Shown: positions 5,172 to 56,799, counted from the stretch's first letter. The stretch: 64,000 nucleotides of DNA from Thermoanaerobaculia bacterium (GCA_044226625.1 JBGAGQ010000004.1:128001-192000); one strand, 5' to 3'. A program made the numbers and translations. Notes: generated from the sequence alone by a model not told the origin.

Positions 5172-5247
5172 GGGGCAGTAGCTCAGCTGGGAGAGCACCA
5201 CGTTCGCAACGTGGGGGTCGAGGGTTCGAATCCCTTCTGCTCCACCA
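5172..5247 (+). tRNA. tRNA-Ala (anticodon CGC)
   Basis: 76-nt cloverleaf: GGGGCAG/CTGCTCC acceptor stem with the G3:U70 alanine determinant, anticodon arm CCACG-TTCGCAA-CGTGG, GTTCGAATC T-loop, encoded CCA. Confidence 0.97.
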
Positions 5248-53928: not shown

Positions 53929-54774
53929 CTAACGGGTCGAGTCTCCCGCCAGCTCACGAGGGTGCGGGTCGAGCGGCGGCCTTGGCTTGACCGGACGGTC
54001 GGCCCGAATGATGGAAATACGCCCGATGGCTCCGTTGCAATCGGAATCGAAATCCGCCACGAACCGCAAAATCCTGCCATCGCCGGTTTGGGTGTAGTCG
54101 AGGATCAGGAATCGGCCGTCCTGGACTTCACAGGTCGAACCCGTCGACACATCGAGCCCGGGATAGGGTCCGGCGTGGGAAAACGAGCTCAACGCGCCGC
54201 CATAAAATCCCGGGATGAGCGGCTTACCTTTGGGCGGACCGAAACGGAGGGAATATCTTTCCTTTCCTTCGACCCCGATCGACACGCCGTTGTTGGACAT
54301 CGCAGAGATCGAAAATTTCGCCAGCGCCTCGTCGACGACCAACCGGGAGCCACGAGCGAGAAGCTCGCCTTCTCGATTCAACAGGCACAAGTAGTTTCGA
54401 CGCGAGGCCAGGTCGCCGCAGGCGTCTTGCACATCCTCGAAGGCCAAAGGGTCACCCGGCGAGGTAGGCGGCGCATCGGCGCGGTTCGACTCCCGCTCAG
54501 GGGGCGTCGCGTCCTTCTCGATGGGCGCGCCGCCCGAAGGGCTCTTCGTCGCCTCTGGACCGACGGGGGACGCGGCGACCTGAAGAGGGACGGATCGTCG
54601 CCCGAGGAGGAATCCCAAGAGCCCCAAAACCCCGCCGAGAAGGAGCGCGACGGCTAACAGGATCACCGCGTGGCGGCGTTCGTCGGCCTGATCGACGAAG
54701 ACTCGAACCTCAGGCCGGCCGCGGTCGGGGCTCCGCCGCGCGAGCGAGCCGGGGCTCGGAGAAATCTCAGGCAT
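53929..54774 (-). CDS. Single-TM hypothetical protein (paralogue 2)
   Basis: TM + 'LLGRRSV', 'DACGDL...NYLCLLNR...FGPPKG...GFY...GPYPG...DFDSDCNGAIGRISI'; colinear with 53129..53905. Confidence 0.75.
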   Translation of the reverse strand: MPEISPSPGSLARRSPDRGRPEVRVFVDQADERRHAVILLAVALLLGGVLGLLGFLLGRRSVPLQVAASPVGPEATKSPSGGAPIEKDATPPERESNRADAPPTSPGDPLAFEDVQDACGDLASRRNYLCLLNREGELLARGSRLVVDEALAKFSISAMSNNGVSIGVEGKERYSLRFGPPKGKPLIPGFYGGALSSFSHAGPYPGLDVSTGSTCEVQDGRFLILDYTQTGDGRILRFVADFDSDCNGAIGRISIIRADRPVKPRPPLDPHPRELAGDSTR

Positions 54775-54847
54775 TCCAGCTCCCCTCTCTGCGCACGAAA
54801 ATGTTCGCCCTTTAGATGGCGGATTTTAGCATTCGCCCCGATCGGGC

Positions 54848-54876
54848 TTGACTTCGTCTCCTAGGACTTCAATACT
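54848..54876 (+). promoter_or_regulatory. Sigma70-type promoter of the leader/pheA-aroF transcript
   Basis: TTGACT-17 nt-AATACT, ending 9 nt before the leader ATG. Confidence 0.7.
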
Positions 54877-54885
54877 CCGGGTCCC

Positions 54886-54957
54886 ATGACGACGTTTGGC
54901 TGGCACTACTACTTTACGTACCGTGACGCGGGGACTTCCGCGTTCGCGTCCGGGTAG
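54886..54957 (+). CDS. Attenuator leader peptide MTTFGWHYYFTYRDAGTSAFASG
   Basis: 23 codons then TAG TAG; codons 4-12 contain 2 Phe, 1 Trp, 3 Tyr; sits between a promoter and a terminator upstream of an aromatic amino acid biosynthesis gene. Confidence 0.88.
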   Translation: MTTFGWHYYFTYRDAGTSAFASG

Positions 54958-54981
54958 TAGCGCCCGCACGACTCGAACCCG

Positions 54982-55020
54982 AAAGCGCCCCGCCGGAAAC
55001 GGTGGGGCGCTTTTGCTTTT
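54982..55020 (+). terminator. Attenuator (conditional intrinsic terminator)
   Basis: AAAGCGCCCCGCCG-GAAA-CGGTGGGGCGCTTT-TGCTTTT, about 40 nt before the structural ATG. Confidence 0.88.
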
Positions 55021-55062
55021 GGCGCGACTTTCGAGACGACGGGTCGGCCGAGGAGAGATCGG

Positions 55063-56799
55063 ATGCGAGTAGCGATACAGGGAACCCGAGGATCGTTCAG
55101 CGAAGCGGCCGCCCGCAAACAATGGCCCGATTTGGAGCTGCTCCCCCTACGCACGGTCGCGGAGGTGGTCGAGGCGGTGCGCGACGGCGCCGCCGACGCC
55201 GGATGTCTCCCCTTCGAAAACTCGCTGGTCGGCTTGGTAGAGACCACCGAGGACGTCCTCCAACAGGCGTTTCGCGATCAGAGCCTCCATCTCGATCGGG
55301 AGATTCTGCTTCCGGTCCATCATGCGCTGCTCAGCGTGCCGGGCGCGTCGAAGTCGACGGTGCGCCGGGTCCTGTCGCATCCGGTAGCGCTCGATCAATG
55401 CCGCATTTGGCTCGGCAAGCACCTGCCGCAGGTGCAGAGGGTGAGCGAGTGGGACACGGCCGGCGGCGCCGAGATCGTGGCGCACGGCGCCGATCCCTCG
55501 CAGGCGGCGATCGGCTCCCTGCTCGCCGCTGAGATCTACGGCCTCGAGGTGATCGAAGACCGGATCGAGGACGACCCGACGAACCAGACCCGTTTCCTCA
55601 CCTTCACCCGCGAGCCGCAGCCCGAGGTGCTCGACGGCCGTCCCAGGAAGACCTCCCTCGTCGTCTGGACCGACCATCGCCCCGGCATGCTCGCCGCGGT
55701 CCTCCAGGCGTTCGCCACGCGCGGCATCAACCTGACCGCGCTCCAGTCGCGGCCGGAGAAATCCGCGCCCTGGACCTATCGGTTCTACATCGACGTCGAG
55801 GGCTCGGCCCGAGAACCGTTGGTAGCCGAGGCGATCGAAGCGATCGAGGCGCTCGCCAACCAGCTCGTCGTGCTCGGTAGCTACCTCGCCTGGCAAGGCC
55901 CCGCCTCGGCGAACGGCGATGCGGCCGCCGCGGGCGCGGCCTCGGCGCCGAACCACCGGCCGAAACCTGCCTTCCCCTTGTTCGACCGGCGGTATCAGCC
56001 GGAGGACACGATCGTCCGCATCGGCTCGATCGAGATCGGCGGCGGGACACCCCTTCTGATCGCCGGCCCCTGCTCGGTCGAGAGCGAGGAGATGCTGATC
56101 GAAACCGCGCGCACGGTCGCCGCGGCGGGCGCCGACATGCTGCGAGGCGGCGCGTTCAAGCCGCGCACCTCTCCGTACGATTTCCAAGGTCTCGGAGTCC
56201 GCGGGTTGAAGATTCTCGCCGAGGCGCGGCGCGTCTCGGGGCTTCCGGTGGTCACCGAGGTGATGAGCTGGGAAGAGGTGCCGCTCGTCTCCCGCTACGC
56301 CGACATGCTCCAGATCGGCGCGCGCAACATGCAGAACTTCGCGCTGCTTCGCGCGGCGGGCCGCAGCGGCAAGCCGGTCATGCTCAAGCGCGGAGCCGGT
56401 GCGACGATCGACGAGTGGCTCCACGCGGCGGAGTACGTCCTCGCCCACGGCAACCCCCAGGTGGTCCTGTGCGAGCGAGGGATCCGGACGTTCGAGCGGG
56501 CCACCCGCCATACGCTCGATCTGAACGCCGTGGCGATCGTGCGCGAGCGGACCCACCTGCCGGTGATCGTCGATCCGAGCCACGCCGCGGGCCTCCGCTC
56601 GATCGTGCCGGCGCTCACCCACGCGGGTCTCGCCGCGGGAGCGCAGGGGATCATCGTCGAAGTCCATCCCGATCCCGACCACGCGCTCTCGGACGGCGCG
56701 CAAAGTCTCACCTTCCAGGGCTTCGCCGATCTCGCGGCGCAGCTCGGGAGAAAGGGGAAAGCACCCTCTGTGGAATCGGCGGAGCTCGCGGTGGTCTAG
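55063..56799 (+). CDS. pheA-aroF: Fused prephenate dehydratase (+ACT) / type I-beta DAHP synthase
   Basis: PDT: QGTRGSFSE, PFENS, SHPVAL.QC, NQTRF; ACT: 'INLTALQSRP'; DAHPS: IAGPCSVES, RGGAFKPRTSPYDFQG, QIGARNMQN, LKRG, CERG, DPSH, SDG. One uninterrupted frame. Confidence 0.92.
   Translation: MRVAIQGTRGSFSEAAARKQWPDLELLPLRTVAEVVEAVRDGAADAGCLPFENSLVGLVETTEDVLQQAFRDQSLHLDREILLPVHHALLSVPGASKSTVRRVLSHPVALDQCRIWLGKHLPQVQRVSEWDTAGGAEIVAHGADPSQAAIGSLLAAEIYGLEVIEDRIEDDPTNQTRFLTFTREPQPEVLDGRPRKTSLVVWTDHRPGMLAAVLQAFATRGINLTALQSRPEKSAPWTYRFYIDVEGSAREPLVAEAIEAIEALANQLVVLGSYLAWQGPASANGDAAAAGAASAPNHRPKPAFPLFDRRYQPEDTIVRIGSIEIGGGTPLLIAGPCSVESEEMLIETARTVAAAGADMLRGGAFKPRTSPYDFQGLGVRGLKILAEARRVSGLPVVTEVMSWEEVPLVSRYADMLQIGARNMQNFALLRAAGRSGKPVMLKRGAGATIDEWLHAAEYVLAHGNPQVVLCERGIRTFERATRHTLDLNAVAIVRERTHLPVIVDPSHAAGLRSIVPALTHAGLAAGAQGIIVEVHPDPDHALSDGAQSLTFQGFADLAAQLGRKGKAPSVESAELAVV

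Follow-up and report, generated by a model that had tools for sequence, protein, structure and literature searches.

Transcription attenuation by means of a translated leader peptide is a textbook principle. In Escherichia coli, the thr and ilvGMEDA attenuators each use one leader for several amino acids, and shortage of any one of these can relieve termination. A comparative study of attenuation across phyla was reportedly made by Lopatovskaya and colleagues in 2010. For aromatic amino acids, the described system closest to the one considered below is aroR of Corynebacterium glutamicum, a Phe-Tyr-Phe leader upstream of the aroF (3-deoxy-D-arabino-heptulosonate 7-phosphate (DAHP) synthase) operon (PMC11802643) that is also listed in the RNA-seq study of Mentz et al. 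2013 (PMC4046766; here and below, statements on cited papers refer to the accessible excerpts of these papers). Transcription of this operon increases on Phe limitation, and Tyr availability has no effect on it (PMC11802643, reviewing Neshat et al. 2014). In the same species, the ilvBNC leader peptide is reportedly made although its frame lacks a ribosome-binding site (Morbach et al. 2000, title cited in PMC4046766). Furthermore, Brewer et al. 2021 described uORFC-13-1, a short frame before a terminator found in Acholeplasma exclusively upstream of aroF (PMC8632094). For Actinobacteria, the accessible part of the paper of Seliverstov et al. 2005 states that no conserved regulatory RNA structure precedes the Phe or Tyr operons (PMC1262725), and the accessible part of a further paper (PMC2965389) mentions neither aromatic genes nor DAHP synthase. 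Our search of the literature outside subscription journals found neither such leaders in Acidobacteriota or Gemmatimonadota nor a catalogue of a class that spans phyla. Here, we analyze an unannotated gap of 215 bp (54848-55062) in a stretch of 64,000 nucleotides (nt) from a Thermoanaerobaculia bacterium (GCA_044226625.1 JBGAGQ010000004.1:128001-192000; "the window", with coordinates counted from its first letter). The gap very probably holds a transcription attenuator of the classical ribosome-mediated type, with a leader peptide, that controls a fusion gene of the pheA-aroF type.

The leader frame and its conservation

The gap is flanked by a divergent frame on the minus strand (53929-54774, without a Pfam match) and by the fusion gene, which starts at 55063; as the neighbour frame lies on the other strand, a terminator in the gap cannot serve the upstream gene. 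The sequence TTGACT-17-AATACT (54848-54876) is the only sigma-70-like site within 54400-55400, where 0.1 are expected from shuffles. The ATG at 54886, separated from the -10 box by 9 nt only (CCGGGTCCC), opens the leader peptide MTTFGWHYYFTYRDAGTSAFASG, which is followed by TAG TAG. The frame has no Shine-Dalgarno sequence, and because its ATG is so close to the -10 box, the leader mRNA is presumably leaderless or nearly so. Six of the nine codons 4-12 are aromatic (F, W, Y, Y, F, Y), compared to 7.6% of F, Y and W codons in the long frames of the window. Both Phe codons of this cluster are TTT, a triplet that accounts for 13% of the Phe codons (65/506) in 27 long window frames of high third-position G+C content; the third leader Phe, codon 20, is TTC. 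The initial annotation, produced by a model from the sequence alone, had pointed out the promoter, the aromatic frame with its double stop, the almost leaderless start without a Shine-Dalgarno sequence and the window-rare TTT codons, and all of these were recovered by our scan and translation; the Phe at codon 20 had been absent from its description.

The leader is an outlier in its own genome. We scanned both strands of the 6.6-Mb genome for frames of 8-45 codons that contain at least four aromatic residues in nine and end at most 140 nt from a terminator-like hairpin. Among the 59 hits, only the leader at 54886 reaches six in nine. The genome itself is probably metagenome-assembled and its source uncultured, since it consists of 133 contigs provided with completeness and contamination estimates.

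Conservation was assessed by a protein search of 61 related genomes, eight of which belong to the same genus. The fusion gene is present in seven of these eight (none in G002), and the 5' flank in six; in G007 the contig ends inside the gene. All six flanks keep the promoter boxes, the ATG 9 nt past the -10 box, the leader frame, the apical hairpin described below and the terminator, and the search for conserved frames rich in Phe, Trp and Tyr upstream of orthologues, which had been recommended in the initial annotation, thus gave a positive answer within the genus. The spacer between the invariant CTTGAC and AATACTC diverges (17-18 nt), and GTCCCATG is invariant in all six sequences, as is the core of the apical hairpin (CGCGGGG-4 nt-CCGCGTTCG). 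The DNA upstream differs among the relatives, and the leader stays directly before the fusion gene.

The peptide, which is 21-23 residues long across the genus, has invariant residues in His7, Phe10 (with TTT throughout), Tyr12 and Arg13. The last two show synonymous variation only, as does Thr3, and synonymous variants occur for Phe4, Arg5 and Tyr8 as well. Indeed, codons 1-13 have 4, 5 and 8 variable columns at codon positions 1, 2 and 3, respectively. This synonymous pattern suggests a translated frame, six close sequences being no proof.

Downstream of the leader, the controlled gene encodes a protein of 578 amino acids in which Pfam identifies prephenate dehydratase (PF00800, residues 3-185; 3.4e-53, 180.6 bits, cut-off 25.2), ACT (PF01842, residues 198-262; 1.8e-11, 44 bits, cut-off 27) and DAHP synthase (PF00793, residues 320-559; 1.1e-82, 277.4 bits, cut-off 25.5) domains. 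The initial annotation had expected a downstream enzyme that gates the common shikimate pathway. The DAHP synthase domain agrees with this; the protein is not a DAHP synthase alone but a fusion with prephenate dehydratase and ACT, and the gene therefore gates the common pathway and the Phe branch alike.

Alternative RNA structures and the proposed switch

The whole leader folds with -74.9 kcal/mol (z = -4.81), and none of 200 shuffles is as good. A domain designated P1, an apical hairpin within it and the terminator (Table 1) form the minimum-energy architecture in all six genus leaders. P1 alone has a z of -2.76, with one of 200 shuffles as good. Its 5' side comprises the Trp-His-Tyr-Tyr/Ser-Phe codons, which in all six folds pair with the region around the stop codon; in the window, CUACUAC (54907-54913) is paired with GUAGUAG (54954-54960), i.e., with the two stop codons. 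The sequence of the 3' partner differs between species, and complementarity is retained. When the duplex of region 1 with region 2 was compared to 500 shuffles of the partner, 0-18 were as good in four of the six species. The apical hairpin, which had been proposed as a "protector", is real and may serve as a pause hairpin.

The strong terminator of the initial annotation was detected by ViennaRNA and by our own terminator rule. A simple terminator scan listed no site at 54980-55020; some residues of the U run are engaged in the stem, and this probably makes the rule of the scan fail. The hairpin is kept in all six sequences, with one two-sided pair change, in G005.

The sequence of the apical hairpin has an alternative partner in the spacer together with the 5' arm of the terminator. 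The resulting predicted antiterminator occupies 13 of the 16 nt of that arm in the window, and terminator and antiterminator are, according to the thermodynamic prediction, mutually exclusive via the 5' arm. Its helices include GCGGGG (54928-54933) with CCCCGC (54988-54993), CUU (54935-54937) with AAG (54983-54985) and GUUCG (54942-54946) with CGAAC (54974-54978), besides further short helices. CGAAC is an invariant block in the otherwise variable spacer, and its partner GUUCG is invariant too. In G005, both the apical loop and the terminator arm differ from those of the other five leaders, and the antiterminator pairing is retained. The existence of an antiterminator had been foreseen correctly, its register had not: the pairing proposed originally, 54939-54955 with 54971-54987, has 14 of 17 possible pairs by hand count, and the predicted fold uses another register and is much more extensive.

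How a ribosome would influence these structures was modelled by excluding from pairing all nucleotides that a stalled ribosome would cover and cutting the transcript before the terminator 3' arm, with three footprint sizes; as everywhere in this study, equilibrium folding was used. With the A site at codons 4-11, a common long antiterminator was formed in all six sequences with all three footprints, i.e., the ribosome-masked folding that had been put forward as a check of the initial annotation favoured the antiterminator for a stall at these codons. The antiterminators of the relatives have -33.6 to -42.6 kcal/mol and occupy 10-14 positions of the 16-nt arm on the 5' side of the terminator, with helices common to all six. 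The effect was weaker for a stall at codon 12 and was gone beyond codon 13. The His codon and the six aromatic codons of the cluster are located in this effective stall window or at its edge, and Phe20 is outside.

On this basis, the following mechanism can be proposed. Transcription would start a few bases before the ATG, and the 23-codon leader would be translated from a leaderless or near-leaderless mRNA. If charged tRNA-Phe, tRNA-Tyr and tRNA-Trp are plentiful, the ribosome would reach the stop codon and cover the middle of the antiterminator segment, so that the terminator with its U tract would form and transcription would end before the fusion gene. If the leader is untranslated, the regulatory codons would pair with the stop region in P1, and the terminator would form too. 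Stalling at codons 4-11/12 (Phe4, Trp6, His7, Tyr8, Tyr9, Phe10, Tyr12) would hold P1 open; the apical-hairpin sequence would then pair with the spacer and the terminator 5' arm, and RNA polymerase would read through into the fusion gene. The data above show the sequence elements, that these are conserved, the competing folds and the position of the codons in relation to them; where transcription starts, that the leader is translated, the switch kinetics and the amino acid(s) that operate the switch are the parts of this scheme that we infer.

Several observations weigh against this interpretation. When no ribosome is included, five of the six genus leaders (the one of the window being the exception) have the antiterminator as the most stable structure of the cut transcript, so that the "off" state would depend on the kinetics of folding and on a ribosome positioned at the stop codon. 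Masking of a ribosome at this position did not abolish the pairing of GCGGGG with CCCCGC across the masked stretch in the model, a pairing that we judge sterically unlikely. Trp6 is kept in five of six leaders (Arg in G006), Tyr8 in five (Leu in G005) and Tyr9 in three (Ser elsewhere). As Trp is thus represented by a single codon and Tyr9 is poorly conserved, the case for sensing of three amino acids is weakened, and in aroR, the precedent that has been studied, Phe limitation acts and Tyr availability does not (PMC11802643); judged from the alignment, Phe and Tyr are the conserved inputs, and integration of Phe, Tyr and Trp by the leader appears plausible from the stall model. That codons 15-20 do not vary in nucleotide sequence is explained by the hairpin rather than by the peptide. 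In G004 and G005, the P1 duplex is no better than shuffles (77 and 78 of 500 as good). Covariation is thin, with two two-sided pairs and a covariation term of +0.92 in RNAalifold on the MAFFT alignment of six close sequences. The outer stem of P1 is largely absent from the RNAalifold result, as the register of its 3' partner is not the same in all species, and P1 was assessed by per-sequence folds instead. Finally, a public RNA run covers only 55157-55269, inside the fusion gene. A second run, the kind of which is unrecorded, gave a 212-nt contig at 54871-55082. Assembled contigs show no starts, ends or levels, and both runs are therefore uninformative on attenuation.

Table 1. Features of the putative attenuator and of the gene downstream (coordinates of the window).
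Feature	Position	Strand	Evidence
-35 box, TTGACT	54848..54853	+	sigma-70-like scan; CTTGAC identical in 6/6 genus sequences
-10 box, AATACT	54871..54876	+	sigma-70-like scan; AATACTC identical in 6/6 genus sequences
Leader reading frame, 23 codons; stop TAG 54955-54957, second TAG 54958-54960	54886..54960	+	translation; frame kept in 6/6 genus relatives
P1 domain ("1:2"), regulatory codons paired with stop-codon region	54890..54975	+	folding, -39.4 kcal/mol
Regulatory codon cluster, codons 4-12 (Phe, Gly, Trp, His, Tyr, Tyr, Phe, Thr, Tyr)	54895..54921	+	translation
Predicted antiterminator ("2:3")	54921..54996	+	predicted fold, -36.0 kcal/mol
Apical hairpin within P1	54922..54948	+	folding, -15.0 kcal/mol
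Intrinsic terminator ("3:4"), 16-bp G+C-rich stem 54980-55015, GAAA loop, U-rich tract to 55020	54980..55020	+	ViennaRNA, -32.2 kcal/mol
Shine-Dalgarno sequence of the main gene, GAGGAGAG	55050..55057	+	sequence; conserved in genus alignment
Fusion gene, 578 amino acids (prephenate dehydratase, ACT, type I DAHP synthase)	55063..56799	+	Pfam

Aromatic leaders in other phyla and alternative explanations

Searches with the leader itself did not extend its distribution. A covariance model built from the six leaders found no new members in 151 genomes of the order: the genome of the window (G000), G001, G003 and G004 scored 139-152 bits (G005-G007 were outside the draw), and the next best hit had 36 bits, most of the hits at this lower level being terminator-like hairpins. 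In metagenome contigs, the invariant apical-hairpin pattern occurs in at least 120 stretches, none of those inspected among the matches listed having the leader context; eight of the matches listed passed a loose flag, and none of these eight possesses both the codon block and the terminator core. The pattern is uninformative because it is too G+C-generic.

A different picture emerged when the neighbourhood of the gene was considered. We collected 80 named loci around protein relatives and 30 from related genomes, 107 of which have at least 700 nt upstream, and applied the rule of the genome scan to 900 nt upstream of each match. Among the 107 loci, 38 have a short aromatic frame with a terminator that precedes the related DAHP synthase gene in the sense direction, compared to one in antisense and none in 930 nt downstream. 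These loci are labelled Acidobacteriota, Planctomycetota, Chloroflexota, Clostridia, Spirochaetia, Gemmatimonadales and Proteobacteria, among others. Composition was counted in 33 leaders, after removal of five same-genus rows. All 33 contain Phe, 31 contain Tyr and 21 contain Trp; the three are combined in 20 leaders, 11 lack only Trp, and one has no aromatic residue but Phe. Mixed aromatic codons are therefore the rule of the class and no peculiarity of the window. The locus of the nearest named relative (L031, 73% identity, labelled Gemmatimonadales) carries a cluster of Phe only, with five Phe in six codons followed by Thr, and the codon mix on the same gene is thus evolutionarily labile. 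In L031 (1303-1343) and in L008 of the same order (977-1019), the leader ATG is located 7-9 nt past a -10-like hexamer and lacks a Shine-Dalgarno sequence, so translation from a leaderless mRNA may be common to the leader peptides of the group.

The dipeptide Phe-Thr is found in 22 of the 33 aromatic leaders; when the residues were shuffled, the number was 8.2 +/- 2.3, and none of 2000 shuffles attained 22. The motif FTYR is present in this genus and in L041, L044, L071 and L082 (labelled Acidobacteriota or Terriglobia). Common ancestry, a constraint on the RNA or an effect of the peptide are possible causes of the Phe-Thr excess.

These data bear on the question whether the leader is translated at all. 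It could instead act as a structured RNA without being translated, for instance as a riboswitch or as an element that binds a protein or a tRNA, and switch the terminator with no ribosome involved and with the aromatic "codons" as a by-product; this would fit with the missing Shine-Dalgarno sequence, with the nucleotide invariance of the apical hairpin and several other blocks, and with the antiterminator being thermodynamically favoured without a ribosome in most of the relatives. However, the Tyr, Arg and Thr codons vary synonymously, the distance of the ATG from the -10 box is fixed, and the unrelated RNAs found in many phyla have only the aromatic frame and the terminator in common, far more often than in the controls. 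Nor does the element resemble a known RNA: Rfam cmscan of 54000-56000 at E values up to 10 gave no match to a leader family or T-box, and unrelated sub-threshold matches only, among them ctRNA_p42d on the terminator hairpin (26.8 bits vs. a gathering score of 50). At gathering scores, a single tRNA (5172-5244) was found in the whole window. The leader families of Rfam include Phe_leader, among others, and Trp_leader (RF00513 in PMC4046766). Taken together, an untranslated RNA appears improbable.

Even less credit can be given to the idea that the small peptide or the terminated small RNA acts in trans and that the fusion gene has a promoter of its own. The terminated transcript would be a discrete, strongly structured RNA of about 135 nt, and trans-acting products of an attenuator are known, as far as the accessible excerpts go, for Sinorhizobium trpL. 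Against this, the promoter scan gave no second promoter-like site at 55020-55063, the fusion gene follows the unit directly in every case, terminator and conserved antiterminator overlap, and the peptide has a C-terminal half set by RNA pairing and a length that varies. A trans role alongside attenuation is possible. Last and least probable, stalling on a translated frame could be read out by Rho-dependent polarity or by main-gene translation, but the 16-bp G+C-rich hairpin with its U tract is kept in all six flanks, and the main-gene Shine-Dalgarno sequence, 30 nt past the U tract, takes part in no predicted alternative pairing.

Attenuation by a translated leader peptide, as proposed from the outset, is thus the explanation borne out by the conservation of the unit, the synonymous variation, the alternative folds, the uniqueness in the genome and the recurrence across phyla. 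A more far-reaching proposal is tentative, and we would rather doubt it than rely on it: the leader could be a multi-input sensor in which a stall at the single Trp, at any Tyr or at any Phe codon (perhaps also at the invariant His) is each sufficient, as all those codons are inside the modelled stall window, and it could be one of a very large number of uncatalogued leaders with mixed Phe/Tyr/Trp codons that precede type I-beta DAHP synthases and form a family with a Phe-Thr signature, often leaderless and maybe of ancient common origin.

The fusion gene deserves some further comments. Its nearest named relatives are labelled Gemmatimonadales (73% and 67% identity). Of 17 named loci with a match across both halves of the query, 11 are single-frame true fusions (L031, L032, L034, L036, L038, L039, L043, L054, L060, L104, L105), labelled Gemmatimonadales, Chthoniobacterales, Vulcanimicrobiota, Acidimicrobiia, Actinomycetes, Ignavibacteria-type and Terriglobia; L031 alone among them passed the leader rule. 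A literature search for a prephenate dehydratase-ACT-DAHP synthase fusion found nothing relevant. In L008 and L009 (same order), the frame points to an added N-terminal extension similar to chorismate mutase. The ACT domain directly precedes the DAHP synthase domain and might regulate both activities of the fusion.

In G004 (L006, 884-2571), the fusion gene lies in two frames that switch near residue 207-210, which is a frameshift or a sequencing error; the leader is intact. In G006 (L007, oriented 1323-2546), most of the DAHP synthase domain is lost, with residues 3-326 kept and a 24-residue remnant in another frame, and the leader is the only one of the six without a Trp codon (TGG to CGG) and has lost Thr11 too. 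This joint loss, a single case in a fragmented assembly, may be a coincidence or an assembly error.

A second type I DAHP synthase is encoded in G000 (contig C72, 2679-3461, minus strand) and is 54% identical to the C-terminal half of the fusion. It has no aromatic leader: the sole candidate, with five aromatic residues in nine, turned out to lie antisense to the 5' end of a divergent signal-peptide gene and was rejected as a false positive. A protein search of G000 gave no other match to prephenate dehydratase beyond the fusion, so that the attenuated gene appears to be the only prephenate dehydratase gene of the genome.

The analysis proposes a function for an unannotated gap of 215 bp, namely control of the entry into the shikimate pathway and of the Phe branch via a single gene in an uncultured soil-type bacterium. 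The leaders at the 38 loci in many phyla are without an Rfam family, and a curated model would improve the annotation of thousands of genomes and would also serve metabolic models of aromatic amino acid supply. Furthermore, the class is a test case for how many amino acids one attenuator reads, for which natural variants are available: L031 with Phe only, the genus described here with its Phe/Tyr/Trp mix, and G006 without the Trp codon and the DAHP synthase domain.

Comparison with known attenuators

The initial annotation had implied a novelty that is overrated, since both mixed-aromatic leaders before DAHP synthase genes and leader peptides without a ribosome-binding site can already be found in the accessible text of published papers. 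Multi-amino-acid leaders are likewise known, but the thr (Thr/Ile) and ilvGMEDA (Leu/Val/Ile) attenuators read other amino acids, and their leaders have ribosome-binding sites. The C. glutamicum ilvBNC leader shares the absence of a Shine-Dalgarno sequence with the leader of the window; it serves branched-chain amino acids, however, and belongs to an actinobacterium.

The uORFC-13-1 element resembles the window in having promoter boxes and a short frame adjoining an intrinsic terminator before a DAHP synthase gene, and the speed of Phe incorporation was proposed as its signal (PMC8632094). In contrast to the leader described here, it possesses a ribosome-binding site and a U run that codes for at least one Phe. 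It is confined to Acholeplasma and environmental DNA, and no mixed Phe/Tyr/Trp composition is described in the accessible part of that paper (PMC8632094).

With E. coli pheL-pheA, the window shares leader attenuation with a (here putative) pause hairpin, an antiterminator and a terminator, and a controlled enzyme with prephenate dehydratase (PMC3082878, PMC11802643). In both leaders, a Thr codon stands beside Phe codons near the leader end, in pheL as ACC next to the last of them (PMC3082878). However, the runs in pheL consist of Phe only, and pheA encodes chorismate mutase and prephenate dehydratase without DAHP synthase.

The likeness is closest to aroR-aroF of C. glutamicum, where a mixed aromatic leader precedes a DAHP synthase gene and stalling raises transcription. 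The leader of the window differs from aroR in that it also contains Trp, His and more Tyr, controls a fusion gene and comes from another phylum; the likeness is a functional one, the aroR sequence being no part of the comparison. The element in the window is a member of no catalogued RNA family, and its proposed mode of action resembles that of trpL or pheL and, most of all, that of aroR-aroF.

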